From contig DASPSR010000042.1 of assembly GCA_035623825.1 (NCBI GenBank), positions 11,669 through 75,668 of the forward strand: DNA of 64,000 nt, given 5' to 3'. Shown here in pieces: positions 29,417 to 46,424 of the stretch (the stretch's first letter is position 1; each line of letters opens with the position of its first letter). Under the pieces are notes generated by a model that was given only the letters and a program-made list of their open reading frames with translations, did no database searches and had not been told where the DNA came from. The translations under genes and the position numbers were made by a program. The stretch is from Nitrospirota bacterium. Lineage in GTDB: Bacteria > Nitrospirota > UBA9217.

Positions 29417-31504
29417 TTACATCCTGAATTTCTGGATCTCATTCTTGAGCGAACCAGCCTGGTCGGCCATAATTTCCACGGCACTGTTGAGCCCAGCAGC
29501 CTGACTTGCATTTTCCTTGGCTATTTGCTTGATGCGCTCGATTGCCTTTACGATCATATTGCTGCCGGTCTGCACCTCACCTGTCGCTCTGTTCACCAGA
29601 GTGATCTTTGCGCTCATGTTCTCGACCGCCGCCGTGATGTCTTTCCCGGCCTTTGCCTGCCCTTCTGTTGATGTTCTGACAAATCGCGTGATCTCGCTCA
29701 TTTTCTCGGATGCCCGCGCAATCTGCTCACTGGCCGATTTCTGCTCATTAGCGGCCTTGGCGATCTGGAGGGTCATCCCGCTGATCCGTTCGACGGCTTC
29801 GCTTACCTGCCTGATGCTCCGCACTTGTTCTGCAGCCGCGCGGTTGATGCTCCTGCTCATGTCACGAGACTGGTCCGCCCGTTCCAGGATCTTTCGAAGT
29901 GTCTGACCCGCATCCTTGGAAAGCCGCATTCCCTCTTCCACGATAGCGACCCCTTCCTGCATGACTCCGGCGGCTACTTTGGATTCTTCCTGCACAGAAG
30001 CAATGAGATTGCCGATTTCCTGTGTTGATGCGGCCGTACGGTTCGATAGGTCGCGTATTTCCGCAGCCACCACCGAAAAACCCTTGCCGTGCTCTCCCGC
30101 CTGTGCCGCGAGGATCGCGGCATTCAGGGCAAGAAGGCCTGTCTGATCCGTAATATCCTCAATGACAGTAAGAATGCTCCCGATACTCTCGACGCGACCG
30201 ACGAGACGGTTCACCACATCGGCGGTCCGCCGCGCTGCTGCATCGATTCTGCCCATGCCCTCGATGGTCTTGTCGATAGAGTGCATGCCAAGTTGCTGGG
30301 CATCAGAGGCAACCGCCTCCGAAAGAGCAAGAGACTGTCTTGCGGTCTCCTCGACCTCTTTTACCGATGTGCTAATCTCGGACGATGACGCCGCTGTATC
30401 CGCTGCAGCAGCTGAAAGCAACTCGACGTTTCCAGCGATCTGCCGGATCGCGACGGACATCTGGGCTATAGCCGAAGTTGTTTCCTCGATAGATGCCGAA
30501 AGTTCGTGCATAGTCCGTGCCACCTCGTCCACAGAGGCGACCGTTTCGATCACGGATGAGGAGGTCTGCGTCGACGTTGCAAACAGGTCTTGAGCGGTTC
30601 CTGCGATTTCCTTGAGGGCAAAATGCATCTCGTTTACAGATGATGCCGCCTCGTCGACGGACTCGGCCTGCGTGCGGCTCCCGGTTGCTATCCGGGCGGA
30701 AGCTCCCTTGACTTCGGTTGAGACCGACTCCACATTCATCGCTGCCTGCTGTACATTTCCGATCATGCCCTTGAGTCCGGTGATCATGCGATTTAGTCCC
30801 CTCCCGAGCATCCCGAATTCGTCATGGGATGCGATGCGTACGCTCTGCGTGAGGTCTCCGGCGGCGATGTTCGATGCCACGGACACCGCTTCCTTCGTCG
30901 GCACAACGATCATCTTCCGCGCCATCATATAGACCATCGCAGCCAACGCGAGCACGATCGCAACGCTCGTTCCGAGCAGCAGGAATACTATTCCTCGGAC
31001 GTTCTGCTTCGCCCCAGTCCTCGAGAACCCCATCCAGACCGTGCCTAGCTTGGTTTCTCCGGTCTTGATGTCGACCGGGATTTCAAGGACATCGAACTGC
31101 GCCTTCACCTTGGCTGCAAGTGCGGGCGCGCTGTCCGATGTGTTCTGCAAGAGGAATTCATGCAGTTCGGGATTCTCCCGGTTGAAACTGGTTACGACAT
31201 TGTTCAAGACCGCGTCCGACGAATCCGTAACATAGGTGTAAAGCATATCCTGAGTTTTGACCGCATCGGCAACAAGGCTTTCAAGCTTTTTCATGTCTTT
31301 CTGGAGAATTGGGTCCGTTACTGCCTTGCCGAGGAACATTCCCAGATCCTTCCCGTGCGTCTCGATATGCCGGTACTGATCGGCTGACATGGTCCGGGCT
31401 ACAAAGGCCGTGCCCAGAACCATAAGCGCAAGAATAACACCGGTGATTACGACGGCGAGCTTTAAGCCCATGCTTGCCTCGATCTTTTCCTTCAGATCCA
31501 GCAT
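29417..31504 (-). CDS. Methyl-accepting chemotaxis protein with a periplasmic sensor domain, HAMP, and a long methyl-accepting signalling domain
   Basis: TM1, a periplasmic region of about 140 aa, TM2, HAMP, then the MA domain (LLALNAAILAAQAGEHGKGFSVVAAEIR). Confidence 0.9.
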   Translation of the reverse strand: MLDLKEKIEASMGLKLAVVITGVILALMVLGTAFVARTMSADQYRHIETHGKDLGMFLGKAVTDPILQKDMKKLESLVADAVKTQDMLYTYVTDSSDAVLNNVVTSFNRENPELHEFLLQNTSDSAPALAAKVKAQFDVLEIPVDIKTGETKLGTVWMGFSRTGAKQNVRGIVFLLLGTSVAIVLALAAMVYMMARKMIVVPTKEAVSVASNIAAGDLTQSVRIASHDEFGMLGRGLNRMITGLKGMIGNVQQAAMNVESVSTEVKGASARIATGSRTQAESVDEAASSVNEMHFALKEIAGTAQDLFATSTQTSSSVIETVASVDEVARTMHELSASIEETTSAIAQMSVAIRQIAGNVELLSAAAADTAASSSEISTSVKEVEETARQSLALSEAVASDAQQLGMHSIDKTIEGMGRIDAAARRTADVVNRLVGRVESIGSILTVIEDITDQTGLLALNAAILAAQAGEHGKGFSVVAAEIRDLSNRTAASTQEIGNLIASVQEESKVAAGVMQEGVAIVEEGMRLSKDAGQTLRKILERADQSRDMSRSINRAAAEQVRSIRQVSEAVERISGMTLQIAKAANEQKSASEQIARASEKMSEITRFVRTSTEGQAKAGKDITAAVENMSAKITLVNRATGEVQTGSNMIVKAIERIKQIAKENASQAAGLNSAVEIMADQAGSLKNEIQKFRM

Positions 31505-32097
31505 CAGATCCTCCCGAGTGCACGCACCGCATGAAGCGGGCCCGTCACGTTCCTCATCTCATGATTTCCGCGCGCATACCTCATGCGCTCTGGACGGCTG
31601 ACAATCCGAGATACTGACAGTCTGAGAAAGAGTATAAGAATGATAAAAATGGCGGGATACTCGAACAGGGCGCCCGCTGCATAGGCCGCAGGCTTGCTGT
31701 CGAGATCGGCGGGGTATACGGAGATGCGGTTTTCTCCCGGCCTTCTCTGGTCCAGAGAGATCGGAAGCGGCCCAATCGTGATGCGTTTGTCGGCGAGAAC
31801 TGGCTTTCCGATATGACCGAGCGATTTCCTGCTGATGTCGGTTACTGTCAGCTCCTGAGCATCGGGCCGAGACAGAAAATTTTGATCCATGATGTCTTTC
31901 CCGCTGAGGTTCGTCATCAGCAGATACGGCGCGGCACGCTCAGGTATGAGCTTAAAGAACTGTTCCCCATTGATCCGGGTATTTGCCAGAATATTCCGTG
32001 TCTCCGCGAAATACCGGCCAGTCCCGATCAGGCTCATGGTCACAAAAAGCCCCGAAACGGTCAGAAAAATGATGCTTTGTCGAACACCAATCTGCAT
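31504..32097 (-). CDS. Small two-TM membrane protein with a ~120-aa periplasmic domain, translationally coupled (ATGA overlap) to the downstream MCP
   Basis: N-terminal TM (IIFLTVSGLFVTMSLIG), a periplasmic segment, a second TM (YPAIFIILILFL) and a short tail. Its stop TGA overlaps the MCP ATG at 31502-31506. Confidence 0.5.
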   Translation of the reverse strand: MQIGVRQSIIFLTVSGLFVTMSLIGTGRYFAETRNILANTRINGEQFFKLIPERAAPYLLMTNLSGKDIMDQNFLSRPDAQELTVTDISRKSLGHIGKPVLADKRITIGPLPISLDQRRPGENRISVYPADLDSKPAAYAAGALFEYPAIFIILILFLRLSVSRIVSRPERMRYARGNHEMRNVTGPLHAVRALGRI

Positions 32098-32201: not shown

Positions 32202-34295
32202 TTAAAACTTGAAACCTTGCAACTCCGCCTGGAGCGCATCTGCCCGCGACTTCAGCGTCTGCGCTGCCATATCCATCTCGACCGACACATCGACGTTTTC
32301 CCGGGTGATATTCTGGATGCGGTTGACCGCGTTGCTAATCTGCTGCGCCCCGACGCTCTGTTCTGATGTGGAGCGAGCGACCTGGGTGGCCTGCGTCTTC
32401 ACTGAATCGATGGTATTGGCAATATGCCTGCTTCCAGTGGTCTGTTCTTGGATTGCTATCTTCATCTGCCGGGTGATGTCACGCATCTTTTCCGAGGCGT
32501 TAGCTATCCGCTCGCTACCTCTCCGCTGCTCTTGCATTGCGCCTGCGATCTGCTCGATCTGGCTTGCGATACTGACAGCGGCCTCCGTGATCTGGGAAAT
32601 ACCCCTGGTCTGTTCCGCTGTCGTCCTCTCAATGGCACGGGCCATGTCCGCTGACTGCTTCGAGCTGTCCGAAACCTGCTGCAGCACGTCGCTGGTCACG
32701 TGCACGAGAGCGGAGCCGGTCTCAACGGCCTTGAGACCTCTATCCATGGCCTGCATGCTTTGTTCCGTTTCTTCCCGCACAGCGACGATCAGGCTCGTGA
32801 TCTCCTGGGTCGAGGCCGCGGTGCGCTCGGCCAGGTCCTTGATCTCTTCGGCCACCACCGCGAATCCTTTCCCGTGTTCTCCAGCCTGAGCAGCGAGAAT
32901 AGCGGCATTCAACGCGAGGAGGCTCGTCTGATCCGTTACTTCGTCAATGACCTTCAATATCTGGCCGATCTCTTGGGAGCGTTTGCCGAGGCGGTTTACC
33001 ACGTCCGCTGTCGCCTCGACAGTTTCCTTGATGTTGTTCATCCCCCGTATCGCCTCTTTTGCCGCGTTCATCCCGCGGTCCGAGGCCTCTGTCGAGACCC
33101 GTTCCGCCAGCTGGGCAGCTTCCAAAGCGCGTTGTTCGACTTCTTTCACCGTGGAACTCATCTCAGTGATGGACGACGACGTCTGTTCCGCTGATGCTGA
33201 GAGCGTCTCCGTATTTTCAGACACCTGTTTAATGGAAGCAAGCATCTGCTCGATGGACGACGCCGTGTCCTCGGCCGCCGCGGAGAGTACGCCAGCGTTT
33301 TTTGCCACCTCTTCGACCGATGAGGCCATTTCCGACGCTGACGATGAGACATCCGTTGCTGCTTGGGACATTTCACTTGCATTTTCCGCGACTCCCTTGA
33401 TCGAGGCGTTCATCTGATTCACGATCGTCGCGGTCTGTTCGGTGGCCTCCTGCTGGACCTTGGCGCCTTCACCCATCTTCACCGTGGCGCTAGTCATGAG
33501 TTTCATGGCGTCGCCCAGGCTCCCGCTCGTCTGCTTGATCTTACCAAGCATCTCCCGCAGGTTCGATGACATCGTGTTGATTGCCGACCCGAGGGACATA
33601 ATCTCGGACCCTCCCGCGGCAGTGATCTCCCGAGAGAGGTCTCCTGCGGCCATCATGGCCGCAGTCTTCGACATATCTGTTATCGGCTGAGTGATTTGCC
33701 TATCAACAAACAGGTTGACTAGAGCCAAGGCCACCAGAAAACTGATGACACCTACCACCAGGGACCACATGAGCAGGCTGTGGACCTGTCTGTTGACCGC
33801 CGACTCTTTCAACGCAATGCGGAAAACCCCGATCTTCTTTCCATCGACACTCATAAGAGGAATGACTTGCTCATAGTGTCCCCCGTGGGCATCTGAATAC
33901 GAATGGACCATGGGCGCTGTTGCCGCGATCGCGTTCCTAGTGGGCTCATCGTTTAACACCGTGCTCTCCATTGTCTTGTCGCTCGAATAGAGCACCTTGC
34001 CATCCGTGTCCAAAACCATGGCCCGCGAGAGGTCCTTGTCTTCATCCGCCAGTCCGCGAAGTTTGTCCCCCATGCCGTCAAGCGCGTTCAGGGGAAGTCC
34101 GAACCCCACGGCCTTGGTAATGTCCTTCTTGATGCCATCGGCAAGAGAAGCGGTCCTGGCGATGAGCGCTTCCTTGTACCTGCTTGTTGCACTATAAATG
34201 TTGATCAGCGTATTGAACGCCAACACCAGCAGGAGGATGCTGGACGTCACAAGCACGGCTCTGTTCTTCAGATTCATTGAGGTTAGTATTTTCAT
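32202..34295 (-). CDS. Methyl-accepting chemotaxis protein (second paralogue)
   Basis: Same architecture as the first MCP; signalling-domain core LLALNAAILAAQAGEHGKGFAVVAEEIK. Confidence 0.9.
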   Translation of the reverse strand: MKILTSMNLKNRAVLVTSSILLLVLAFNTLINIYSATSRYKEALIARTASLADGIKKDITKAVGFGLPLNALDGMGDKLRGLADEDKDLSRAMVLDTDGKVLYSSDKTMESTVLNDEPTRNAIAATAPMVHSYSDAHGGHYEQVIPLMSVDGKKIGVFRIALKESAVNRQVHSLLMWSLVVGVISFLVALALVNLFVDRQITQPITDMSKTAAMMAAGDLSREITAAGGSEIMSLGSAINTMSSNLREMLGKIKQTSGSLGDAMKLMTSATVKMGEGAKVQQEATEQTATIVNQMNASIKGVAENASEMSQAATDVSSSASEMASSVEEVAKNAGVLSAAAEDTASSIEQMLASIKQVSENTETLSASAEQTSSSITEMSSTVKEVEQRALEAAQLAERVSTEASDRGMNAAKEAIRGMNNIKETVEATADVVNRLGKRSQEIGQILKVIDEVTDQTSLLALNAAILAAQAGEHGKGFAVVAEEIKDLAERTAASTQEITSLIVAVREETEQSMQAMDRGLKAVETGSALVHVTSDVLQQVSDSSKQSADMARAIERTTAEQTRGISQITEAAVSIASQIEQIAGAMQEQRRGSERIANASEKMRDITRQMKIAIQEQTTGSRHIANTIDSVKTQATQVARSTSEQSVGAQQISNAVNRIQNITRENVDVSVEMDMAAQTLKSRADALQAELQGFKF

Positions 34296-35221
34296 TTGAT
34301 CACCTTCGTCGCGTCTGTAAGTAGATCGATGGGCACCTTGATTCCCATATCATTCGCTTCCTTGAGGTTCAGCACGAGCTCAACCAGCCGAGGGACCTGC
34401 GGGGGAATGCTCGCTGGGTTTTCGCCTTTGAGAAGACGCGCGACGATATGCGCCGCTGCTTCACCTTGTTCCACAGGGCTCGCCGCGAGCGTCAGGATAA
34501 CCCCCTTCTCAGCTGAACCGCCGGTCTGGCTGATCGTGGGTATCTTGGTTCCATGCGCCGTTTTCACGATGGTATCGATCGCCTCGTTTGCGGCCGCGCT
34601 GACAGATATGAACACTGCATCCGCCTTGCCTGCAAACACAAGCTTTCGGGCATCGTCGACCTTTTTAATCGGCATTCTCACCGTCTGGAATCCGTACTGG
34701 CTCTCAAGCTGAGCCAGCTCATCTGCCTGCTTCATGGAATCGGGTTCCGATTCATTGTAAATAATAGCGACCTTCGTGAAGGGCGTGATTTTTTTCAGGT
34801 ATTTTAACAAGCTTGTCATCGGCACCTTTGAGCTTATGCCCGTCATATTCCTTGCCGAAACACCAACTGATCCCGGATCATAGACGCCTGCATACACGAG
34901 CGGAATATCCTTTGTCTCCTTGATCGATGCGAGTGCCGCCGGCGCGCCGTAGGTCACGAGCACATTGACATCGGCCACCACCAGCTTCCGGGCTGAGTTC
35001 GTCCAGGACATCGGATCGGGCGAGGGCATCTGCAGCACCGTGTCGACCTTTCGGAAGTCGAACCCCTCCTTGGCCAGGGTGCCTACGAAGGTCTTATGCA
35101 CTTCCTGATAGTACCCGACGTTCCCGGACATGATCACGCCTACGGTCTTGTCCGCCGCCTCGACCGTCGCTGCGCAGCACACCAGCGTAATCGTTAATAA
35201 CCAGTTTAGTCGTCTCATCAT
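34292..35221 (-). CDS. Periplasmic substrate-binding protein (ABC_sub_bind / BMP-like family), translationally coupled to the MCP
   Basis: Signal peptide MMRRLNWLLTITLVCCAATVEA and a type-I periplasmic-binding-protein fold. A 4-bp ATGA overlap links it to the MCP start. Confidence 0.7.
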   Translation of the reverse strand: MMRRLNWLLTITLVCCAATVEAADKTVGVIMSGNVGYYQEVHKTFVGTLAKEGFDFRKVDTVLQMPSPDPMSWTNSARKLVVADVNVLVTYGAPAALASIKETKDIPLVYAGVYDPGSVGVSARNMTGISSKVPMTSLLKYLKKITPFTKVAIIYNESEPDSMKQADELAQLESQYGFQTVRMPIKKVDDARKLVFAGKADAVFISVSAAANEAIDTIVKTAHGTKIPTISQTGGSAEKGVILTLAASPVEQGEAAAHIVARLLKGENPASIPPQVPRLVELVLNLKEANDMGIKVPIDLLTDATKVIK

Positions 35222-35228: not shown

Positions 35229-37187
35229 TTACCATTTCATGGACAGGGTGGCCAATAGAGTTGCAAACTCGCCGTCCTGGGTGTTGTCAATTTTATCGTC
35301 ATACTGCTGATACTGGTAGCGGATCTCTCCGTCCGTGTTCTTGCCGAGCCCCATTTGAACACCGAAAGCATAGACGGTGTCGACGACCCTCATATTCGAT
35401 AACTCAGGGATTCCTCCCACGTTGGTCACGCTGCTCGTCCCTGTAAGGCAGAAATTGCCCCGCGAGTAGCTCCTGCTTCCCGATGCCGTGAGATTCATTC
35501 TATCTATCGGAGAATAAGTCAGTGCAAGTGATCCTACGTGGGCAATGTCTGCGTAAGGGACACCTGGTTCGAGCGACAAAGCGCCTGTCCCGTCTTGAAA
35601 GGTGACGGTCTGATTGACATTGTTTTGGAAGTAGGAGTAGCTCGCCGTGATCGAAGAGCGGTTGCCGACCAAGAGCGTAACGCTGGCAAGGCCCTGATCG
35701 CGTCTGACCTCCCTGCTCCCGCCGGCCAGAGGCGCCACCAGATCATTCCGGCTCTCCCGCACAGTACTGTAACTGAGCAGGGTATTGATCCTCGTCGCAG
35801 GCGTCCAGGTGAGCGATGCCTGTCCAGACTGCGCCCGGTCAGGGTCGGTATCGTAGGCCGGGTTGTTAATCGCCGTATAAGCATAATCCCCGCGGAAGGT
35901 AAGCCTATTCATGATGCGGTACGCAAGTTCTATCCTCGCTGTTCCCTTGGTGGTCTTATCCGGCAGGTCCCAGAATGCCTGGCCGCCTGGAGGAAATGGC
36001 AGAGAGGTCCCAGGAACCCCTACGGAGCGGTCAATCATGTCCAAGACATACTGGCCCTTAAATGTCAGACGGTCGGTTGCCCGGTAACGGATTGTTCCAT
36101 CCACAACGTCCCGTGTCGAAGAGATGGCGTCCCTGACACTGTTCGGGCCACTGACTATGGTGGGGACTGGGGTTATGTTATTGACCATGCTGGGGTTGCT
36201 TTCATCCTTATCGTAGTGCCGATATTTGAGGACGAACATCACGCTGGTCACGGGCAATAACATAAGGTCGCCCCCCGCATTCCAGTATTGCACCTTCGCT
36301 CCGCTGGAGTCATTTTTTGAGTCCCCGTTCGTGACAGTACCCGCAGCAACTACTTTCCCTGAATACATCGTGTGGATCTTCACCGTATCGGACGAGGATT
36401 CAAGAGTGGGAGTTAAATTATGCGGGACCGGATTGGACCCTGGGGCGTACGTGTCGTACAGTACGTTGCTGTCGTACGATGTGAACCGCTTATCCATGTG
36501 GCTGTAATCAACTTCTACCGGTCCGAGGTGGCTGTTCGCGCCAACCGTAACCTCCCGTGTAAACCAATCGATATCCCTGGACTCTGAGATCTTGTTGAGG
36601 CCACCGGAAAATCCGCGCAAGAATATCTGCTGTATGGTCCCTTCCCGCTCGACGGTCCGCAGGTCTGCGTACAGGTGGAAAGGATAGTCCGGCGTCTTAA
36701 AGCGGATGAATCCATTCTCCAGCCTGTTCTCAGCGCCATACATGGCCCCGGGGTTTAAGTCGGTGAAGGTCGGCGTGCCTGGCGGCGCTGGTGCGGGAGG
36801 AAGATTTTCGGTTAAATGATTAAGATTATGGAACATGTCTCTCGCAACCCAGTTAAAGAGCACGATATCCTTGAAGGCGTAATCCGTCTCAACGAAGTAA
36901 TCCTTGGTATTCAAATAATAGGACTCAACTGCAACGCGGTGAGGCAGCGGGTCCCATTCCAGGTCCAGCGCGCCGATGGCAGAAGACCTGAGATAATCAT
37001 ACTCTCCGGCGTGAGCGGGATTCCCTTCCTGATCTATAGTCCGATAGCCCAGGCTGATCCTGCCTTCAAAGGCCTCCAGACGCTCCCCCGCAGCGGTCTC
37101 TGCCGTGCTTGTCCCCGAGGGTTGCTGTGCTAGAACCGGGGAGGCCCAGAGCATCAAAAATGCGATTATGAGAATGGTCTTTTTCAT
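35229..37187 (-). CDS. MtrB/PioB-family outer-membrane beta-barrel porin (porin-cytochrome conduit sheath)
   Basis: Signal peptide MKKTILIIAFLMLWASPVLA. 652 aa with an alternating amphipathic beta-strand pattern rich in Y/T/G/N/D. The C-terminus is ...LSMKW. It lies immediately downstream of two decahaem cytochromes in mtrC-mtrA-mtrB order, and the sizes (644/341/652 aa) match Shewanella MtrC/A/B (671/333/697). Confidence 0.7.
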   Translation of the reverse strand: MKKTILIIAFLMLWASPVLAQQPSGTSTAETAAGERLEAFEGRISLGYRTIDQEGNPAHAGEYDYLRSSAIGALDLEWDPLPHRVAVESYYLNTKDYFVETDYAFKDIVLFNWVARDMFHNLNHLTENLPPAPAPPGTPTFTDLNPGAMYGAENRLENGFIRFKTPDYPFHLYADLRTVEREGTIQQIFLRGFSGGLNKISESRDIDWFTREVTVGANSHLGPVEVDYSHMDKRFTSYDSNVLYDTYAPGSNPVPHNLTPTLESSSDTVKIHTMYSGKVVAAGTVTNGDSKNDSSGAKVQYWNAGGDLMLLPVTSVMFVLKYRHYDKDESNPSMVNNITPVPTIVSGPNSVRDAISSTRDVVDGTIRYRATDRLTFKGQYVLDMIDRSVGVPGTSLPFPPGGQAFWDLPDKTTKGTARIELAYRIMNRLTFRGDYAYTAINNPAYDTDPDRAQSGQASLTWTPATRINTLLSYSTVRESRNDLVAPLAGGSREVRRDQGLASVTLLVGNRSSITASYSYFQNNVNQTVTFQDGTGALSLEPGVPYADIAHVGSLALTYSPIDRMNLTASGSRSYSRGNFCLTGTSSVTNVGGIPELSNMRVVDTVYAFGVQMGLGKNTDGEIRYQYQQYDDKIDNTQDGEFATLLATLSMKW

Positions 37188-37200
37188 TTATGAGCCTCCT

Positions 37201-38226
37201 CTACTGTATGAAATGGCCCTGGCCGCTTGGTGACGGCAGGTCCGAACCGTGTATCTGTGAATGGCAGTCCGTGCACCGCGTATAGAATGCTGTCTTCTGC
37301 GCGGCAGTCGTCGCTGCAGCCGGGGGCGCACTGACGATCGGGTGGGTCGGATGGCACTGCAGGCAGAGGAACGGCTCGCGCAGGAGGAGCAGGTTGCTGT
37401 TCACCGACCCGTGCGGCGTATGGCAGGCGCGGCAATCGTCGGTAAGGTCAGCATGCTCGTACACAAACGGGCCCTGCTTCTCCGCATGGCACTGGGTGCA
37501 GGTTGCCTTCACCGTTTCCCGCCTCAGGTTCCTCTCTCCGCCTCCGCCATGCGGATCGTGGCAGTCGGTGCAGAACACCTTCTTTTCCGGCACGGGATGG
37601 TGGTTCGGCAGGGAGAACGCAGCCTGCACGTCCTGGTGACAGCGCTCGCACATTTCTGCTGTGTCTTTGAGCTTGACCTTGAGGTTGTGTCCTCCGTGGA
37701 TCTTATGGCAGTCGGAACACGACACGTCGGCAACGTTGTGGATGCTCGAATTCCAGTTATGCAGGTTGAACGTCGCGTTGGCCGTATGGCACTTCAGGCA
37801 GATAAGTGATTTTGCCTGGGCGGGCAGGTTCTTGATGTCGATTAGGGTCTTGAAGTCGCAGGCCGTCTTCTTTCCGGCCTTGGCATCGGCAGCGAGCCTC
37901 TGCGGTGTCAGAGGATCTATGGCGAGGCTGCCCGGACCGTGGCAGCTCTCGCAGTTCACCAGCGGCAGACCCGATTCCCTCGAGAGCTGAGCGCCCATGG
38001 TCGAGAGGTCGAAATCGCGCCTCTTCTGGTCGTGCTCGTGGCATGCCTTGAGGCAGTTATCCGTGCCTACATAGTCGGCGTCGAGCCGGCCGGCAATCAT
38101 CTTCTCGTAATCCTTGATCGGGAAAATCGGCCTTGCTTCCTTGAGAGCCGCACATCCAGCGGCAAAGAAGGCGCCGAGAATCCCGATTGCCAGCCATTTC
38201 TTCCATGTGAATAGTCGTTCCATCAT
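37201..38226 (-). CDS. Periplasmic decahaem c-type cytochrome, MtrA/DmsE/PioA-like
   Basis: 341 aa with a signal peptide. There are 9 canonical CxxCH motifs (CESCH, CLKCH, CSDCH, CERCH, CTDCH, CTQCH, CRACH, CLQCH, CTDCH) plus one CxxxCH (CLKACH). Confidence 0.8.
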   Translation of the reverse strand: MMERLFTWKKWLAIGILGAFFAAGCAALKEARPIFPIKDYEKMIAGRLDADYVGTDNCLKACHEHDQKRRDFDLSTMGAQLSRESGLPLVNCESCHGPGSLAIDPLTPQRLAADAKAGKKTACDFKTLIDIKNLPAQAKSLICLKCHTANATFNLHNWNSSIHNVADVSCSDCHKIHGGHNLKVKLKDTAEMCERCHQDVQAAFSLPNHHPVPEKKVFCTDCHDPHGGGGERNLRRETVKATCTQCHAEKQGPFVYEHADLTDDCRACHTPHGSVNSNLLLLREPFLCLQCHPTHPIVSAPPAAATTAAQKTAFYTRCTDCHSQIHGSDLPSPSGQGHFIQ

Positions 38227-38252
38227 CTAGCCTCCTTTACCTAAGCGTTGGG

Positions 38253-40187
38253 TTAGGGCCGTTCTGCCTCGCTTCCGAATCCACCCGGGTATGCGCCATT
38301 CCAGAGCGGCCCGTTTGGAAGAAGATATGCCTTGGCTCCCTGGCACCAGGCGGGCGGTGTGCCGCCGCTGCACGCGGTGCTGAGAGTCGCACCGACCGAA
38401 TAGTTCATTATCCCGTCATCGAGCCAGTCGAGAGAGTCGTAGATCAATCTTTTCGCAAACCTGCTGTTATGCACATAGGCGCCCCATTCATGAGTGAGGA
38501 GGCTGAAGTTAAACGCGGCACCCAGATTGTTTTTGCCGGTCGTGTTGCCCGTTATATCCGCATCACCGGCGGAAAGCCAGTTTTTGTTGGCGAAATACGG
38601 ATAATTGGTGGTGAATGTATAACCGGATATAATGAGCTCTGCTTGGAGTGCCTGCAAGGCAGAATCGAAGTTGTTCTTTTCGTCCTGCACTACCGTACCA
38701 AAATCTATGCTGGAACCGGCATGGCAGGCAAAACAAACCGCGCTCGATACAACGATGTTCCCCATATTCGTACTGATTGGCTCAAAGAGATGGTTGCCAC
38801 TCATGCCCGTCCGGTCCATATGGCATCCGACGCAAGGGCCGTTCGAGCCGGTGTTCGGGGCATTTGGCGTGCCGATCTGATTGTGCTTGAACGAAGCGGG
38901 GTCAGCATAGTTCCTCCCGGCATATACGTACGGCGTGCCCTTGAACATCGTTCCGCCTGCGGAGAGGTAGTGTCCGTCAGGGAAACTGAAATTGCTGAAA
39001 TTCACGGTTGCTGTCTGTCCGGTATTCAAATCGCTGACCGCCGTGCCGTTTACGCGCCCCGTGTGGCAGGGAATACAGACATTCGAGATGGATAGATCAG
39101 GGTACTGGAAATATGCTGTAGAGCTCGGGGCGGAGCCGATCGTATACGTTGCCTTATAGGCTCCCGGATTCCTGAGGTCACCCGCATTGTCTGTGTGACA
39201 GCCTCTGCACTCGAGCATTTCGGGCTTGAAGTTCAAAGCAGAGGGTACAAGCGCTATGCCGCCGGCTACAATGGTTGCGGCCAATGATTGGTTTCCCGCC
39301 TGAAGCGCATCGGCATACGTCGCAAAACCGGTTGTCGTATGACAGCGCTGACAGGCGGTCCTGCTCGCCAGCGACCAGTCGTAATGAGCCCAGGCATCTG
39401 CCGCAAGCATATCCGCATGCTTCGAACTGGCCCAATCTCTGTTGATGTCGGCATTCTTATGCGGATTGTGGCAGTCGGTACAGACGGTATCGCTCGCAAA
39501 ATTCATGGCATAACCGGTAATATTATTGCTATTTTGACTAGTTCCTGACGCCCCCCAGTTGCCGGGGGTGGCAAAGTGCGTGTCAGTGATAACGTATTGA
39601 GTTCCATTGGGGGCAGGTGCCCCTGCTAAATGGGTCGGCGAAGCATTAAGAGCTCCTGTTGAGGTATCGAGCAGATTATGACAAGCCGTGCACATGACGA
39701 ATTGTCCAGAGACCGCTACGGCGCCGAAGCTTGTCCCCGTCGTGTTCGAAAGGAGGGATATCGGCCCGGCCCCGCCGGCATCTGCATGCAGGCTCCCGGG
39801 ACCGTGGCAAGCCTCGCAGCCGACCACCGGACGAGGAACATTCCCCGTGTATCCTGCTGTGAGATTGTTGCTGTCCCCGTCAGGGTCATGACAACTGATG
39901 CAGCCTGAGCCGCCTGCCTGGACAAGACCCACTGTCGGAACGCCTGCACTGTACAGGTTACCTGCAGGATCGAGATTCCCGTGTTTGCTCATAAGCCAGT
40001 CGGCTGTTTCGGTGGTATGACATCCTGCGCACCTATTCAGTCCTGCAGTCGTAGTCGCTGCAGAAAGAACGCTTGAAGTCGCCGGCCCGATAGCCGAATC
40101 GGACTTGCCGCAACCTCCGAGCATGGCGATACATGCAAGCATGAAAAGAAAAACGAGGACTGTTCTGCTTCCCTTCTTTGTATTCAT
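38253..40187 (-). CDS. Outer-membrane lipoprotein decahaem c-type cytochrome (functional analogue of MtrC/OmcA)
   Basis: Lipobox MLGGCGKS. Ten CxxCH motifs (CAGCH, CISCH, CEACH, CTACH, CTDCH, CQRCH, CRGCH, CIPCH, CVGCH, CFACH). 644 aa. Confidence 0.8.
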   Translation of the reverse strand: MNTKKGSRTVLVFLFMLACIAMLGGCGKSDSAIGPATSSVLSAATTTAGLNRCAGCHTTETADWLMSKHGNLDPAGNLYSAGVPTVGLVQAGGSGCISCHDPDGDSNNLTAGYTGNVPRPVVGCEACHGPGSLHADAGGAGPISLLSNTTGTSFGAVAVSGQFVMCTACHNLLDTSTGALNASPTHLAGAPAPNGTQYVITDTHFATPGNWGASGTSQNSNNITGYAMNFASDTVCTDCHNPHKNADINRDWASSKHADMLAADAWAHYDWSLASRTACQRCHTTTGFATYADALQAGNQSLAATIVAGGIALVPSALNFKPEMLECRGCHTDNAGDLRNPGAYKATYTIGSAPSSTAYFQYPDLSISNVCIPCHTGRVNGTAVSDLNTGQTATVNFSNFSFPDGHYLSAGGTMFKGTPYVYAGRNYADPASFKHNQIGTPNAPNTGSNGPCVGCHMDRTGMSGNHLFEPISTNMGNIVVSSAVCFACHAGSSIDFGTVVQDEKNNFDSALQALQAELIISGYTFTTNYPYFANKNWLSAGDADITGNTTGKNNLGAAFNFSLLTHEWGAYVHNSRFAKRLIYDSLDWLDDGIMNYSVGATLSTACSGGTPPAWCQGAKAYLLPNGPLWNGAYPGGFGSEAERP

Positions 40188-40292: not shown

Positions 40293-40955
40293 CTACGCCC
40301 CTACCGCTTTGTGCAAGTCCAGCAGGATGTAGAGCCTGTCGTCTTTTCGCGCTATCCCCTTTAGGAACTCTGCACCTTGTTCGATGGTCTCCGGTGCAGG
40401 ACGGACGGCGTCCGGTGAGATCCGTACCACCCCGGTCACCTGATCCACGAGAATTCCCGCGTTCTCGTCATCTGGGCTTATAATGATAATCCGCGCCTTC
40501 TCGTCCCTCACGGCGGGCGGAAGGCCTAGCCGCCTTCCGAGATCCAGTACTGGCAGGACCGTTCCCCGGATCGATGTCACCCCGATGACATGTGACGGTG
40601 AATTGGGGACCATGGTGAGCTCCCTGCTTTTCAGCACTTCCTGTACATCATCTACGGGCAGGACATACTCTTCACTGCCGAGGCGGAACGAGAGCATCTC
40701 GATCTCCTGTGTGTGAATTCCACTTGCCACTCCTTCTTCAGGCTCCGGCGTGTCCCTTCTTCCGATTTCTTCCACTGCGGCGTGTTTGGCCGCTTCCGGT
40801 TGTTTCCCGACAGCTGGAGATGACGGCACAGGGCTCGCGCTGCCAGAGGGCTTTTCCGTCTGGGCAGGTTGAGCAGGGGCCGTTTCTTCGGTCTCGAGTT
40901 TGTTTTGTGTGCGTGTCCACTCCGCTGCCTTTTTCCGCGCTGCCAAGATATCCAT
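40293..40955 (-). CDS. CheW-like protein with a ~90-aa low-complexity, Pro/Ala/Glu-rich N-terminal extension
   Basis: C-terminal CheW domain (LSFRLGSEEYVLPVDDVQEVLK...SIRGTVLPVLDLGRRLG). Confidence 0.8.
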   Translation of the reverse strand: MDILAARKKAAEWTRTQNKLETEETAPAQPAQTEKPSGSASPVPSSPAVGKQPEAAKHAAVEEIGRRDTPEPEEGVASGIHTQEIEMLSFRLGSEEYVLPVDDVQEVLKSRELTMVPNSPSHVIGVTSIRGTVLPVLDLGRRLGLPPAVRDEKARIIIISPDDENAGILVDQVTGVVRISPDAVRPAPETIEQGAEFLKGIARKDDRLYILLDLHKAVGA

Positions 40956-40984: not shown

Positions 40985-41866
40985 TTACAGAGAGCAGAGG
41001 ACATGGGACATATGGGAAACCATGGCCCCTCTTCTCTTTGCCTCATGCCGAATGCCCTTTCCGTCCTTCGCCCGCCCTTCTCTCACTATGCTCTCGATGA
41101 TCTCCTGGTCTATTATCTTGAGGCCCTTGCCGAAACCTTCAACGAGCGCATTGCCCGCAATGGTGTTGATAATGCGCGGAACGCCTCCTGAACGCTCGAA
41201 CAAAGCCGTGTTCGCTTCTTCATCAAAGAGCAGCGTTTCCCTCCCCGCTACCCGGAGCCGGTGCTTCACGTACTCTCGTGTCTCGTCCTCGTCAAGCGGG
41301 CCCAGGTGATACTGCATTCCGATCCTCTGCCGAAGCGCCCTGTACTGGCGTCGGTCGAGCCGCTCCCCGAGCTCTGTCTGGCCGATAAGCAGGATCGCGA
41401 GAAGGTTGCGGTCATCGAGCTGGAAATTCGTAAGCAACCGCAGTTCCTCGAACGTGGCCTTGCCGGAGATAAGCTGCGCTTCGTCAATGATGACCACCGG
41501 TCGCTTCCCGGCCTCGAAGAACTCATACAGCTTTGCATTGATTCCCTCAATGATGCTGTGGCAATCCCGGCTCGAGCACTCCATCTCGAGGCCGAGGGCC
41601 ACGGTTCTCAGAAGATGTAGCGGCGAAAGCCGCGGGTTGATTATCAGCATCGGATGAAAGCTCCCGTCCAGCGAATCGATGAGCGCACGGGAAATCATCG
41701 TCTTGCCCGTACCGATATCGCCGGTCAACAGGGCAATGTCCTGGTCCTCTGCCGCAAGCTGTAGCCGGGCGAGGGCCTCGGCATGCTTGGCGCTCTGGTA
41801 GAAAAAACGCGGGTCAGGCGTCTTTTTGAACGGCTTTTCGCTCAGTCCGTAAAATTCTTCATACAT
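40985..41866 (-). CDS. ExeA/GspA/MshM-like AAA ATPase (AAA_22)
   Basis: Walker A GDIGTGKT and Walker B VVIIDEAQ. The N-terminus YGLSEKPFKKTPDPRFFYQS is typical of the ExeA family. Confidence 0.7.
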   Translation of the reverse strand: MYEEFYGLSEKPFKKTPDPRFFYQSAKHAEALARLQLAAEDQDIALLTGDIGTGKTMISRALIDSLDGSFHPMLIINPRLSPLHLLRTVALGLEMECSSRDCHSIIEGINAKLYEFFEAGKRPVVIIDEAQLISGKATFEELRLLTNFQLDDRNLLAILLIGQTELGERLDRRQYRALRQRIGMQYHLGPLDEDETREYVKHRLRVAGRETLLFDEEANTALFERSGGVPRIINTIAGNALVEGFGKGLKIIDQEIIESIVREGRAKDGKGIRHEAKRRGAMVSHMSHVLCSL

Positions 41867-41998: not shown

Positions 41999-44008
41999 CT
42001 ACTGTCTGCTGACAACGACCGATCTTTTGAGAGCCCCTTCGATGAGTGATTCAACATCCAGCACGAGCACAACGCCGCGTCTGTCTCCCAGCTCCGTGGC
42101 GCCAGCAATGCCCGGTATCTCCGATATCCGCTTTCCAAGAGGCTTGATGACGATCTCCTGCTGGTCCCGGAGACCGTCAACCATGATCCCCAAGCGGCGC
42201 TCTGCGAGACCCACGAGGATGAGGTAGAATGAGTTGCTGCTGGGCTTCGGGGTCAGTTTGAACGCCTTCGTAAGCCGATAGAGCGGTATCGTGTCGCCAC
42301 GGATGGCCATCACCTCGCGTGTCTCCACGGTCTCTACCTGGTCATGCGTCGCCTGAATGATCTCGAGCACGGCGCTGAGAGGCACGGCAAACACCTCTCC
42401 GCCGGCCTCCACTACGAGTGCCTTGATGATGGCAAGGGTTATGGGAAGCGTGATGATGAATTTCGTTCCCATACCCGTCTCGGTATCGATATCAATCATA
42501 CCGGACAGCTTGGAGACATTCCGTTTCACCACGTCCAAACCCACACCACGGCCCGAGATTTCGGTTACGGTCTCGCGGGTGGTGAAGCCGGGAAGGAAAA
42601 TGATATCCAGAATCTCTTTGCGGTCGGTCTCAGGATCAAGGCCATGGTCCGAGGGGAGAACCGCTTTCTGCACTGCCTTGGCCAGGATATTCTTCGTTTC
42701 TATCCCCGCTCCGTCGTCTTCGACGGTGATCACCACATGGTTGCCCTTGGGGAATGCCGCGAGCTTTACCACACCGTGTTCCGGCTTTCCCTGCTGTTTC
42801 CGTATTTCGGGGAGTTCGATGCCGTGGTCAATGGCATTCCTTATGAGGTGCATGAGCGGGTCGGCAAGGTCCTCGATCATAAGCTTGTCGAGTTCGGTCT
42901 CTTCTCCCGAAAGATGGAGATCGATCTCCTTTCCCACTTCTTTCGCGTACTTTCTGACCATCTGTGAAAGGCGCGTAAAAATCTGGCCGATTGGAACCAT
43001 TCTAACCTCAAGGATCCCCTCCTGGAGGTCGTTCAGCTTCCTCTCCAGGCTGCGCTGCGCCTTGTGCAGATCCACGGAAAGTCCTGCGAATCCGTGCATG
43101 GATCTCAACTCACGCGCGATGCGACCGATGATGTTCTTGGTGAGGTGCATCTCACCGACTACGTTCATAAGGCCGTCAAGCTTGTAGATATCCACGCGGA
43201 CAGTATTGCTCACCGACTTGATCGCACCCGTTTCCGATACCGCCCGTTGCTCTTCCACCTTCCGCCCCTCGACGTACGTTATCGGGTCGAAGGACACCTT
43301 TGGCATATTGATCGCCGACATGAGCTCGTCACGTCCCATTGCGGTGCCGGCCACAATGGTAAATCCGATGCCGCCTGCGGCCGCGCCGGCCGTGGGCAGG
43401 GTGCAGATAATTTCAGCGTTCTTTTTGAGCACATCATTGAGGTTCTTGATGCCTTTTTCGAAATCGGTAAGCTCGAACAACGCCTTAATGGTGAAAAGGT
43501 TTTTGTGCTCCCTGATATTTTCCTTGAGTCGGTATTCTTCGTATTCCGTAAGGACTTGGAGGAGCCCGCGGTCAATTTCTATCTGATCCAGGATAGACCG
43601 GTCAGCGGCTGTGGAAGGCTTGGCTTTGAGGATTCCGTCGATGCGGTCAAGCGCGGCCGCTATGTCTTCCGGCTGCTCCTTGTTGCCCACTTGCTGCACA
43701 TGCCGTCCGAGCAGGGCCACGGTCTCGAATAGCACATCGAGGACGTCCCGGCTGAGCGCTGTTTTCCCGAGACGGACCTCGTCGAGGAGGAACTCCAGTT
43801 TGTGTGAGAGCTCTGAGGGGGCCTTGAGCCCGAACATCCCGGCGAGTCCCTTGAAGGAATGGATTGCGCGAAAAAGGCCGTTCACCAGATCCGGAGCCGA
43901 GCGCCCTGCGGCCTGTTCGGACTCAAGCGAGAGCATCGTCTGGTTGGCCGTTTCGAGAATGTCTTCCGCCTCGGCTAGAAAATCCTTTATAGAACGGTCT
44001 GATTTCAA
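41999..44008 (-). CDS. cheA: Chemotaxis histidine kinase CheA
   Basis: Hpt domain (HSFKG), dimerisation domain, HATPase_c (GRGVGLDVV) and a C-terminal CheW-like domain. 669 aa. Confidence 0.9.
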   Translation of the reverse strand: MKSDRSIKDFLAEAEDILETANQTMLSLESEQAAGRSAPDLVNGLFRAIHSFKGLAGMFGLKAPSELSHKLEFLLDEVRLGKTALSRDVLDVLFETVALLGRHVQQVGNKEQPEDIAAALDRIDGILKAKPSTAADRSILDQIEIDRGLLQVLTEYEEYRLKENIREHKNLFTIKALFELTDFEKGIKNLNDVLKKNAEIICTLPTAGAAAGGIGFTIVAGTAMGRDELMSAINMPKVSFDPITYVEGRKVEEQRAVSETGAIKSVSNTVRVDIYKLDGLMNVVGEMHLTKNIIGRIARELRSMHGFAGLSVDLHKAQRSLERKLNDLQEGILEVRMVPIGQIFTRLSQMVRKYAKEVGKEIDLHLSGEETELDKLMIEDLADPLMHLIRNAIDHGIELPEIRKQQGKPEHGVVKLAAFPKGNHVVITVEDDGAGIETKNILAKAVQKAVLPSDHGLDPETDRKEILDIIFLPGFTTRETVTEISGRGVGLDVVKRNVSKLSGMIDIDTETGMGTKFIITLPITLAIIKALVVEAGGEVFAVPLSAVLEIIQATHDQVETVETREVMAIRGDTIPLYRLTKAFKLTPKPSSNSFYLILVGLAERRLGIMVDGLRDQQEIVIKPLGKRISEIPGIAGATELGDRRGVVLVLDVESLIEGALKRSVVVSRQ

Positions 44009-44099: not shown

Positions 44100-44471
44100 C
44101 TATTCACCCTCCAACGCCTTGTTCACTGCAGCCATTAGATCTTCCTTCTTGAAAGGTTTAACTACATATCCGGTAGCCCCGAGCGCTATGCCCCTTTTTT
44201 GGTCTTCCTCGCTCTTTTCGGTGCTCACGATGATTAGGGGAATGTCCTTATAAGCGGCATTCGACTTTACAAAGCTGATCAACTCAAGGCCGTTGATGTC
44301 GGGCATATTGATGTCAGTGATTATCAGGTTGAAGCGTCGTGTGGGAAGGGTTTTGAGGGCTTCAAAGCCGTTCCCGGCTTCCACCGCAAAGAACTCTCCC
44401 ATTTCCTCGAGAGAGACCCGCATCATCGAGCGTATGGCCTTGGAATCCTCCACGATAAGGACGTTCTTCAT
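44100..44471 (-). CDS. cheY: Chemotaxis response regulator CheY
   Basis: 123-aa REC domain with DINMPDING and KPF. Confidence 0.9.
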   Translation of the reverse strand: MKNVLIVEDSKAIRSMMRVSLEEMGEFFAVEAGNGFEALKTLPTRRFNLIITDINMPDINGLELISFVKSNAAYKDIPLIIVSTEKSEEDQKRGIALGATGYVVKPFKKEDLMAAVNKALEGE

Positions 44472-44599
44472 TTTCGCTCCTTCTGAAGGTCGGCAGGTCT
44501 CTTTTCCAGCAGGCCCTTTTCCAAGACCATCCCCGCCTGATTGATGAATATCTCGAGAGTATCCACGCCTTTGATCGGTTTCTGATCGGGCAAGTTGTC
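44290..44599. repeat. Copy 1 of a ~310-bp diverged direct repeat (~93% identity) covering the cheY 5' end plus a DUF4388-gene 3'-end remnant
   Basis: Aligned by eye to 45016-45326. There are about 20 substitutions plus a 1-bp indel. The remnant still reads in frame as ...FINQAGMVLEKGLLEKRPADLQKERK-stop, overlapping the cheY ATG. Confidence 0.8.
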
Positions 44600-45015
44600 T
44601 CCCTATGCGTTATCAACGCCCAAGATTCTCTTCATTTTGTTCCAAGCGCTATTACTGTTTTTTTATCGCATCCTTATGAATCCATCCTATGCTCGACTTG
44701 CAATATTTATACTAAATTTATATTTTAAAATATGTCAATAAATCAATTTGTTACAGCGCGTGAAACGCTTTCCCCAGTGTTGGAAAATACTACACTGATG
44801 GAATCTTAACGGACAAAATTTGACAGAGCAGTCTTGGCTCTTTAAAAATCTCGGGGCGCTTTTCGAGAGAACAGCGGCTCCCGGTTGAGCTTGGCTAAAC
44901 TGGGTTCAGATATTTCTTGGAAGAGCAGGGAAACAGCTTCGTATTCAATCGCGATCACTTGGTGACGGTGTACGTCGTATGCGACGGAACAGGCGTTACA
45001 AAGCTGATTGGAAAA

Positions 45016-45194
45016 AGCCGTTGATGTCGGGCATATTGATGTCAGTGATGATCAGGTTGAAGCGGTTTGCGGGAAGAGTTTTGAGGGCTTCAAAGCCGTT
45101 CCCGGCTTCCACCGCAAAGAACTCTCCCGTTTCCTCGAGAGAGACCCGCATCATCGAGCGTATGGCCTCGAATCCTCCACGATAAAGACGTTCT
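45016..45194 (-). pseudogene. cheY N-terminal fragment, about 60 codons, frameshifted and truncated
   Basis: It begins MKNVFIVEDS... with the same ATGA overlap to the DUF4388 gene as the intact pair. A 1-bp deletion relative to intact cheY sits at about 45160. Sequence then diverges into the AT-rich spacer. Confidence 0.7.
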
Positions 45195-46340: not shown

Positions 46341-46424
46341 GCACTCTCCCTGTTACTCATTTTCAACAAATTATATCAACTTGAAAAAAAGAAGCAAGTT
46401 TAATCATCGGTCAGGTAGACAGGA

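Follow-up and report, generated by a model that had tools for sequence, protein, structure and literature searches.

The OmcKL/MtrAB-type porin-cytochrome conduit encoded in the window (the whole 64,000-nt stretch of DNA analysed here) lies inside a chemosensory operon, and we put at about one half the probability that it is functionally coupled to this chemosensory pathway, most likely as its input device. An outer-membrane wire of this kind may sense redox-active surfaces, beyond only respiring them. The conduit comprises three genes:

38253–40187, minus strand: C644, a surface decahaem lipoprotein of 644 aa with a c554/NrfA/OcwA-like fold, not that of MtrC
37201–38226, minus strand: A341, an MtrA/DmsE-family, OmcK-like decahaem cytochrome and predicted lipoprotein of 341 aa whose first motif is CxxxCH
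35229–37187, minus strand: B652, an MtrB/OmcL-like outer-membrane barrel of 652 aa, modelled with 26 strands and without a haem motif

A first-pass annotation had proposed these three open reading frames, their C-A-B order and their assignment to a porin-cytochrome conduit, all of which we recovered; the intergenic gaps are 26 nt (C644/A341) and 13 nt (A341/B652). Its count of ten haem motifs per cytochrome held as well: C644 carries ten CxxCH motifs and a lipobox (LGGC, residues 23–26), and A341 carries nine CxxCH plus CLKACH at residue 58. Given their own Cys and His content, the two cytochromes would contain ~0.03 and 0.1 CxxCH by chance.

Judged by profile and alignment scores, A341 is an MtrA/DmsE-family decahaem cytochrome. 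TIGR03508 (MtrA/DmsE) scores it 251.4 bits (cutoff 192.2), pairing protein residues 54–331 with model positions 1–257 of 258, and in a phmmer alignment to MtrA (6r2q_A; E 1.2e-42) ten of ten motifs are collinear, with CLKACH opposite the first CxxCH of MtrA. By the same kind of score (NF041028, 245.1 bits, cutoff 325), it is also a near relative of the GSU2203 (OmcK) family, below the membership cutoff. The protein had been described as periplasmic, which we correct to a predicted lipoprotein: a lipobox Cys after the signal peptide and the CLxACH motif are both kept in 61 of 61 homologues.

B652 has a signal peptide, a C-terminal Trp, a single Cys and no haem motif. Its AF2 model (pLDDT 81.7) is a 26-strand MtrB/OmcL-like barrel, with 26 strands of at least 10 residues according to DSSP, and the best Foldseek match is MtrB (6r2q_B; E 3.1e-15, TM 0.47), eight orders of magnitude ahead of the next; the 26-strand barrel that had been predicted was thus found, not one with far fewer strands. 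At the sequence level, Pfam PF11854 reaches 27.7 bits (GA 23) over residues 289–448 only and is matched by 44 of 61 relatives (E ≤ 0.01), TIGR03509 (MtrB/PioB) reaches 30.9 bits where its cutoff is 240, and neither the single sequence nor a profile of B652 matched MtrB in the PDB. The profile does reach OmcL-like Desulfuromonadales barrels (E 1e-53 to 1e-73), and the barrels of this sister clade carry one CxxCH or CxxxCH near residue 200. Membership of B652 in the GSU2204 (OmcL) family was considered and rejected, as NF041027 gives 120.1 bits (cutoff 350) and the protein contains neither CXXCH nor Sec, the defining feature of GSU2204-type barrels. The view that the locus follows Shewanella rather than Geobacter was right only in that the layout is unlike OmbB-OmaB-OmcB, but it does not extend to the proteins: the barrel scores 120 bits with GSU2204 and 31 with MtrB/PioB, and the decahaem cytochrome 245 bits with GSU2203 (OmcK), close to the 251 with DmsE.

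The label 'MtrC-type' for the 644-aa cytochrome had to be abandoned. No MtrC, OmcA, MtrF or UndA chain matched C644 at E ≤ 1, either with the single sequence or with the family profile, and its haem spacing therefore does not align with the MtrC/OmcA families. Those proteins have a four-domain fold in which two beta-barrel domains flank two pentahaem domains; no beta-barrel domain of the MtrC kind was found in C644. It matches instead cytochrome c554, which its N-terminal four-haem part resembles, NrfA and OcwA, with whose type it shares the C-terminal haem core and long helices, and also SmhA. Foldseek returned nothing significant for the C644 model, in which the N-terminal 200 residues are of low confidence. 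C644 is analogous, not homologous, to MtrC. Across 57 homologues its motifs vary little or not at all, except that the first Cys of motif 2 is Thr or Ser in some. A PF22113 match (53 bits, five short stretches) was set aside as motif-driven; A341 matches the same model. C644 could also be a catalytic surface enzyme, an NrfA/ONR/HAO-type multihaem reductase that receives electrons via A341/B652 and acts on a soluble extracellular substrate such as polysulfide or an oxyanion of nitrogen or sulfur. We regard this as very improbable: the NrfA catalytic CxxCK is absent, so that C644 is not filed as a nitrite reductase, the structure search gave no significant match, OcwA and SmhA, surface cytochromes that are not enzymes, are among the matches, and most of the family can do without C644.

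The first-pass annotation did not mention the chemosensory operon that surrounds these genes. Its order is CheY-CheA-ATPase-CheW-C-A-B-SBP-MCP-(MCP remnant)-MCP-CheW-HEAT-CheR-CheB-GAF-RR, with the following features around the conduit:

44709–44738, minus strand: promoter-like TTGACA-18-TAGTAT upstream of cheY, a candidate operon start by consensus match only (10/12)
44100–44471, minus strand: CheY-like response regulator, 123 aa (PF00072), kept upstream of CheA in related loci
41999–44008, minus strand: CheA histidine kinase, 669 aa, with Hpt, H-kinase_dim, HATPase_c and CheW domains
40985–41866, minus strand: AAA_22 ATPase of 293 aa, flanked by CheA and CheW
40293–40955, minus strand: CheW, 220 aa, with an N-terminal extension (PF01584)
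34292–35221, minus strand: orphan periplasmic solute-binding protein, SBP (PF04392)
32202–34295, minus strand: MCP1 chemoreceptor (sCache_3_2-like periplasmic domain, HAMP, long signalling domain)
31504–32097, minus strand: remnant of a third MCP, 197 aa
29417–31504, minus strand: MCP2, 695 aa, with HAMP and MCPsignal, kept in related loci
28805–29332, minus strand: second CheW, 175 aa
26824–28818, minus strand: HEAT-repeat (PBS-lyase-like) protein, 664 aa
25945–26823, minus strand: CheR methyltransferase
24730–25821, minus strand: CheB methylesterase
23714–24583, minus strand: GAF-domain protein at the operon end
23321–23701, minus strand: single-domain response regulator at the operon end

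The intergenic gaps from 44.1 to 28.8 kb contain no terminator-like site on the minus strand, and the SBP stop codon overlaps the MCP1 start (ATGA). From this arrangement, the C-A-B genes appear to be co-transcribed with the PF04392 SBP and the chemoreceptor within a Che7/Esn-like operon, which points to functional coupling of the conduit to the pathway. The SBP, whose PDB relatives are 3LKV and 3LFT, has no ABC permease or ATPase nearby. Residues 1–169 of the MCP remnant share 59–61% identity with the N-terminal part of 943-aa MCPs from loci L002 and L012, which bear a C-terminal PhnD-like domain. Neither a quinol dehydrogenase nor a periplasmic shuttle cytochrome was present among the operon and flanking genes scanned.

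We compared the locus with 73 related loci. The MtrA-like gene directly precedes the barrel gene in 67 of 67 loci, a PF04392 SBP follows the barrel in 61 of 63, and a signal transducer comes next in 48 of 52 (34 MCPs, 14 histidine kinases). The transducer is an MCP in Nitrospirota and, mainly in Desulfobulbales, a histidine kinase whose periplasmic domain has a conserved CxxCH; the two sensor domains are not homologous. The Desulfobulbales module consists of the conduit, two binding proteins and the haem kinase, and in the loci examined it stops at the kinase, with unrelated genes beyond. Tight packing recurs, with a 4-nt overlap of SBP stop and MCP start in 21 of 35 loci and an overlap of the SBP stop with a second SBP start in 18 of 20. 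The gene order of the window is kept in ~22 Nitrospirota MAGs (barrel identity 38–75%) and around three further C644 homologues, and CheA lies upstream of the barrel in 20 of the 43 loci with enough sequence. Just 22 of 58 loci encode the surface cytochrome and 36 lack it; in L017 and L021 it is absent even within the Che operon. Carriers of the conduit module are nearly all uncultured.

These data suggest a scheme in which we infer electron transfer, its direction and each coupling step from protein identities, export and lipidation signals, folds, gene packing and gene order. Lipid-anchored A341 would most likely be threaded through B652, forming a haem wire that spans the outer membrane and is capped outside by C644 in this lineage, so that electrons could be exchanged between the periplasm and extracellular redox partners, solid or colloidal. 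Whatever touches the cell surface would set the redox state of the wire, which in Nitrospirota may be relayed in the periplasm via the PF04392 SBP to the MCP, and in the Desulfobulbales relatives directly to the haem-bearing kinase; the relay would then alter CheA activity. The conduit would thus plausibly act as an antenna that reads the redox state outside the cell. A stricter version, which we advance only tentatively, makes the wire a dedicated sensory antenna with no respiratory outlet, reporting the redox potential of touching surfaces or partners to the chemoreceptor array via the SBP in Nitrospirota and to the haem-c histidine kinase in Desulfobulbales. If true, this would be the first case in which a signal-transduction pathway takes in its signal across the outer membrane in the form of electrons. 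The periplasmic domain of the MCP has no haem motif, and the SBP has neither a Cys nor a known cofactor site; the Nitrospirota proteins thus show no sign of chemistry for a redox relay. In the Desulfuromonadales sister clade the decahaem cytochrome also has the lipobox and CxxxCH as its first motif, a PF04392 gene again follows the barrel, and in 2 of the 3 loci examined the A-B-SBP trio has no adjacent transducer; the SBP may therefore serve the conduit itself, in assembly or as a periplasmic partner, and not signalling.

The role proposed in the first-pass annotation, DIET or metal respiration, is possible, but it overlooks the embedding in a chemosensory operon and the binding protein and transducer downstream. 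Such an account takes the locus for an ordinary respiratory conduit that moves bulk catabolic electrons out or in, with metal oxides, humics or a syntrophic partner at the other end, and has the Che genes adjoin it because taxis or attachment to these acceptors is co-regulated, the conduit not feeding the sensors. Linkage to sensor genes is equally expected if sensors only regulate, or guide cells to, a respiratory conduit. Nevertheless, we consider this account rather unlikely, since the neighbourhoods examined showed neither a quinol dehydrogenase of the inner membrane nor a periplasmic carrier near the conduit, the sole invariant neighbours are the binding protein and the signal transducer, the entire Desulfobulbales module is a conduit with two binding proteins and a haem kinase, and the surface cytochrome that a mineral reducer needs is missing in 36 of 58 loci. 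The same 36 loci, with a decahaem cytochrome and a barrel but no surface cytochrome, have the layout of MtoAB/PioAB, which speaks for electron uptake or Fe(II)/Mn(II) oxidation of that kind, drawing on reduced minerals, cathodic surfaces or a partner and feeding Wood-Ljungdahl CO2 fixation. In line with it, the Sec-FDH (in-frame TGA at 2163–2165, motif CARL-U-HS), ACS, MetF and MetV reported earlier for the window were confirmed, together with a corrinoid Fe-S protein (ACS/CFeSP) and HdrA/MvhD-like genes. We nonetheless think uptake improbable: direction is not readable from sequence, no MtoD-like or HiPIP acceptor and no inner-membrane partner lies nearby, TIGR03509 (MtrB/PioB) is far below its cutoff, and the binding protein and transducers would be left unexplained.

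The locus shares with Shewanella MtrCAB (6R2Q) the C-A-B order, similar sizes, an outer decahaem lipoprotein, a decahaem cytochrome that aligns to MtrA at ten motifs and a barrel with 26 predicted strands and MtrB as its best structural match. It differs in that C644 and MtrC are not homologues, A341 carries a predicted lipid anchor and CxxxCH as its first motif, the sequence kinship of the barrel is marginal (TIGR03509, 31 bits vs 240), the unit includes an orphan SBP and an MCP, and no CymA-like gene lies nearby; many Mtr clusters contain a CymA homologue, and no Nitrospirota feature in the published MtrCAB survey (PMC8805035). MtoAB/PioAB of Fe(II) oxidisers, like 36 of 58 relatives of this locus, consist of a decahaem cytochrome and a large barrel only, whereas the window has a third, surface cytochrome, a barrel far below the MtrB/PioB HMM cutoff, no MtoD/PioC-type periplasmic partner and an anaerobic, Wood-Ljungdahl host. 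OcwA (Thermincola potens, 6I5B) and SmhA (Carboxydothermus ferrireducens, 6QVM) are surface multihaem cytochromes of Gram-positive metal reducers; C644, by contrast, is a ten-haem diderm lipoprotein genetically tied to an MtrAB-like porin-cytochrome. Geobacter OmcK/OmcL (GSU2203/GSU2204) supply the best or second-best NCBIfam models for A341 and B652, but both scores fall below the cutoffs (325 and 350), B652 lacks CxxCH or Sec, and the window adds an OcwA-like surface cytochrome and a Che operon setting. An 'OmcKL conduit' has been proposed for DIET in Ca. Desulfofervidus too.

The likeness of the Che genes to Esn and Che7 concerns domain content and order only. Geobacter beta-group che clusters have no mcp genes (PMC2577667); unlike cluster 5 of that group, the operon in the window holds two MCPs, a binding protein and a conduit, and we found no conduit genes described within beta-group clusters. 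The HEAT-repeat protein alongside CheR and CheB recalls Myxococcus Che7, a system tied to a HEAT-repeat protein in M. xanthus (PMC9040617). The CheA-ATPase-CheW order is that of Geobacter Esn (GSU2222-2221-2220, esnC-ATPase-esnB; PMC5585712). In G. sulfurreducens, GSU2220-2222 (CheW-ATPase-CheA) are required for electrode colonisation and not for Fe(III) oxide reduction (PMC5585712), and because Esn mutants fail on electrodes, not on Fe oxides, such a pathway is linked to the sensing of conductive surfaces.

The MtrC/MtrA/MtrB-type conduit proposed in the first-pass annotation corresponds to three open reading frames, all found on the minus strand at the sizes it had given (644, 341 and 652 aa) and spaced by 26 and 13 nt:

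38253-40187, minus strand: C644, surface decahaem lipoprotein of 644 aa with ten CxxCH motifs and an LGGC lipobox
37201-38226, minus strand: A341, MtrA-like decahaem cytochrome of 341 aa with nine CxxCH motifs and CLKACH
35229-37187, minus strand: B652, barrel of 652 aa with a signal peptide, no haem motif, one Cys and a terminal Trp

Its count of ten haem motifs per cytochrome, including one CxxxCH in the MtrA-like protein, likewise holds, against a chance expectation, given how many Cys and His these proteins contain, of ~0.1 motifs or fewer. Across 57 C644 homologues the motif Cys and His are invariant or nearly so, except at the second motif, whose first Cys is replaced by Thr or Ser in some of them.

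A341 scores 251 bits against the curated DmsE/MtrA model (cutoff 192), and its alignment to MtrA from the solved Mtr complex (E 1e-42) brings all ten haem sites into register. It differs from Shewanella MtrA by a conserved lipobox Cys and by CxxxCH as the first haem motif, both present in 61 of 61 homologues and in five more MtrA-like neighbours that were checked, of which three belong to the Desulfuromonadales sister clade. B652 reached 27.7 bits against PF11854, spanning a quarter of the protein, and 31 bits against TIGR03509 (cutoff 240); by sequence it had no match in the PDB, either singly or as a 61-sequence profile, and among PDB comparisons its kinship with MtrB was seen only by fold search. 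The AlphaFold model built from the 61-sequence alignment (pLDDT 81.7) has 26 long strands rather than the 12-16 of a generic porin, and its best structural match is MtrB (6r2q_B; E 3e-15), with TonB-dependent receptors and LptD next, eight orders of magnitude worse. Because the predicted barrel has 26 strands and the MtrB fold, and because PF11854 is matched in 44 of 61 relatives, we regard A341/B652 as a genuine MtrAB-type unit.

The gene layout had been called Shewanella-like rather than Geobacter-like, which holds in part: it does differ from that of Geobacter OmbB-OmaB-OmcB. By HMM score, however, B652 is nearer to Geobacter GSU2204 (OmcL) than to MtrB/PioB (120 bits against the OmcL model NF041027, below its family cutoff, versus 31), and A341 scores 245 bits against the GSU2203 (OmcK) model NF041028, nearly its DmsE score and again below the family cutoff. 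The GSU2203/GSU2204 pair is the OmcKL conduit, which is induced on hematite and magnetite and has been suggested to mediate electron transfer between species in the bacterial partners of ANME. A census of 1.84 billion representatives with the B652 profile returned a small family (452 matches at E ≤ 1e-3, 223 at E ≤ 1e-30) with an outer fringe of barrels that, like OmcL, have one haem motif (CxxCH or CxxxCH) at about residue 200; ten haem-bearing barrel representatives all fall under the NF041027 cutoff. Two family members, P0290 (996 aa) and P0280 (784 aa), have N-terminal extensions of ~370 and ~160 residues that lack haem motifs.

For the third component the label MtrC-type had to be dropped. 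Neither as a single sequence nor as a profile did C644 match MtrC, OmcA, MtrF or UndA, and its model, in which low confidence over the first 200 residues limits statements on that half, is mainly helical with one beta-hairpin and zero beta-barrel domains; a Foldseek search with it gave no significant match. By contrast with the MtrC group, cytochrome c554 is matched by the N-terminal four-haem region (E 5e-8) and OcwA, a Thermincola surface cytochrome, by the profile (E 3.8e-7), with NrfA matched more weakly. On these grounds C644 is an MtrC analogue from the NrfA/OcwA fold class. A catalytic role for such a protein is a minor alternative; since the CxxCK motif sought in C644 is absent, nitrite reductase was set aside as the main reading. 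Only nine non-motif His are invariant for ten haems, and Met457 is invariant as well, so one haem may be His/Met-ligated or five-coordinate. A C-terminal Cys pair (residues 606-615, CSGGTPPAWC, CX8C) is complete in 37 of 57 homologues. Three loci (L038, L042 and L058) encode a shorter C644-like protein, with seven haem motifs in L038 and L042, and have no Che genes upstream.

The three conduit genes sit mid-way in one long minus-strand chemosensory operon, arranged as follows:

Before the conduit: CheY, CheA, AAA_22 ATPase, CheW
Directly after B652: PF04392 periplasmic binding protein (SBP), its stop overlapping the next start
Receptors: chemoreceptor (MCP) with an sCache-like periplasmic domain, 197-aa MCP remnant, second MCP
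End: second CheW, HEAT-repeat protein, CheR, CheB, GAF protein, response regulator

No terminator-like site lies in the operon's intergenic gaps and the best promoter-like site is upstream of cheY, both scans being at background level and weakly informative. An Rfam scan of the operon found no RNA element; across all 64 kb of the window, a single tRNA gene (60066-60147, minus strand) was the one match to reach the Rfam gathering threshold. The MCP remnant (31504-32097, minus strand) has no Pfam match. Over residues 1-169 it shares 59-61% identity with the N-termini of the 943-aa MCPs from related loci L002 and L012, proteins whose C-terminal domain is PhnD-like (Phosphonate-bd); a 926-aa MCP that also has this domain is intact in L083. 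In the window genome a deletion appears to have removed ~760 residues from the middle of this third MCP. A stretch of ~320 nt spanning the 3' end of a DUF4388/PatA_N gene and the 5' end of cheY occurs twice as a direct repeat (44286-44606 and 45014-45333; identity 92-95%, spacing 727 nt), so that a 52-aa piece of a response regulator is encoded ahead of the intact cheY; relatives have the DUF4388/PatA_N gene abutting cheY. Before cheY, 45195-47722 (minus strand) encodes LolA, YajQ (DUF520) and a DUF4388/PatA_N-GAF protein. As this order recurs in distant relatives (L001, L012, L021, L081 and L083), the conserved block may start upstream of cheY.

Scanning species-representative genomes with the barrel profile yielded 73 loci, nearly all in Nitrospirota MAGs (several labelled Thermodesulfovibrionia/Thermodesulfovibrionales), with Desulfobulbales at ~32% identity. 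Counted over loci with enough sequence around the barrel, an MtrA-like gene precedes it in 67 of 67, a PF04392 protein follows in 61 of 63, and a membrane signal transducer lies within a few kb after it in 48 of 52; a C644-type cytochrome is found in only 22 of 58, and CheA upstream in 20 of 43. The full order CheA-ATPase-CheW-C-A-B-SBP-MCP is kept in ~22 Nitrospirota genomes as barrel identity falls from 75% to 38%, and three more C644 homologues, picked at random from long contigs, show the identical arrangement. Two Nitrospirota MAGs (L017, L021) have the whole Che operon with A-B-SBP-MCP and lack the C644-type surface cytochrome. Exact 4-nt stop/start overlaps join SBP to MCP in 21 of 35 loci and SBP to a second SBP in 18 of 20, an excess that is the meaningful part of a gap statistic otherwise biased to small gaps because it takes the start codon nearest the upstream stop. 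The OmcL-like loci compared were those of the Desulfuromonadales sister clade, such as that of the cultured Desulfuromonas versatilis; they too have decahaem-barrel-PF04392, with an MCP after the SBP in one of three loci examined. The PF04392 binding protein therefore characterises the OmcKL-like group as a whole, and the signal transducer characterises the B652 clade.

In the Desulfobulbales loci examined, the transducer is a histidine kinase with a conserved periplasmic CxxCH at residue 89; a Nitrospiraceae MAG (L025) likewise has a histidine-kinase transducer by tblastn. A second, PhnD-like binding protein precedes the kinase, giving a self-contained five-gene module, seen mainly in Desulfobulbales:

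L040, L045, L046, L051, L054, L055 and L068 (for example L051, 8787-15184): MtrA-like cytochrome, barrel, PF04392 SBP, PhnD-like SBP, membrane histidine kinase

The module ends at the kinase, the next genes being amtB-glnK-glnD or otherwise unrelated, and some of the kinases are hybrids with PAS and receiver domains. For the kinase periplasmic domain (~150 aa) no Pfam or PDB relative was found; a single sensor family comprising the MCP and kinase periplasmic domains was ruled out (BLAST E>0.03).

The Sec-FDH, ACS, MetF and MetV on which the first-pass annotation had based its metabolic setting are all in the window:

531-5797, minus strand: formate dehydrogenase (FDH) with selenocysteine at an in-frame TGA, 2163-2165 (NVDHCARL-U-HSATVAGL)
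5840-19453, minus strand: Wood-Ljungdahl methyl-branch and ACS block

The FDH alpha subunit has a NuoG-like N-terminus fused to molybdopterin domains, and NuoF-like and NuoE-like genes adjoin it, which is consistent with an NAD(P)- or ferredoxin-linked enzyme; a 673-aa plus-strand ORF over this region is spurious. The block encodes ACS (733 aa), two CdhD-type corrinoid Fe-S protein subunits, a pterin-binding methyltransferase, MetF, MetV and a 700-aa HdrA/MvhD-like protein.

All the components of an outer-membrane haem wire are encoded in the window. Judged purely from gene context, we put at roughly 0.5 the probability of a functional coupling between this conduit and signalling, in which the conduit most simply serves as the input. 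The wire would equilibrate with any redox-active surface touching the cell; its periplasmic end would then act on the binding protein and MCP or, alternatively, reduce the haem of the kinase. We favour coupling to signalling because the conduit is tightly and persistently packaged with periplasmic binding proteins and with transducers from two unrelated classes, because no respiratory gene was seen in the neighbourhoods examined and because the Che genes resemble Esn and Che7 systems in domain order. A plain conduit for metal respiration or direct interspecies electron transfer (DIET), as first proposed, seems less likely, as no quinol dehydrogenase or periplasmic carrier cytochrome was among the genes scanned in the neighbourhoods examined, unlike many Mtr clusters, which include a CymA homologue (PMC8805035). 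We retain it since linkage does not tell a conduit that feeds the sensors from one regulated with them; moreover, neither the Nitrospirota MCP nor the binding protein shows redox-relay chemistry, and two of the three Desulfuromonadales loci have no nearby transducer. Inward, MtoAB-like electron flow through the same parts is a minor alternative.

Coupling to signalling would bear on the detection by bacteria of electron acceptors that are insoluble, of electrodes or of syntrophic partners. Congregation of Shewanella around minerals reportedly needs Mtr components and CheA. The conduit, set in a Che operon (closer Nitrospirota relatives) or with a haem kinase (Desulfobulbales), is a testable candidate for an "extracellular redox sense". 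Its parts are all from known families, and divergent porin-cytochrome clusters in uncultured phyla are now often reported. Three features appear new: the use of an OcwA/NrfA-fold cytochrome to cap an MtrAB/OmcKL-type pair, the almost invariable presence of a PF04392 partner, and the placement of the conduit within a chemosensory operon, together with a haem-kinase version found in another phylum. In the literature searched, none of the three is described, nor is any conduit within a che operon or beside a PF04392 protein, and a published MtrCAB survey has no Nitrospirota among its members (PMC8805035). Mtr-like conduits are thereby extended to Wood-Ljungdahl Nitrospirota, an OcwA/NrfA-fold cytochrome can stand in for MtrC as surface cap, and the PF04392 binding protein emerges as an overlooked conserved third partner of the OmcKL-type family. 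Among known chemosensory systems, the window Che genes share the CheA-ATPase-CheW order of G. sulfurreducens GSU2222-2220, part of the Esn network needed for electrode colonisation, in which esnC and esnB are required for that process and not for Fe(III) oxide reduction (PMC5585712), and the operon includes the HEAT-repeat protein typical of Che7/beta-group clusters (PMC2577667, PMC9040617).
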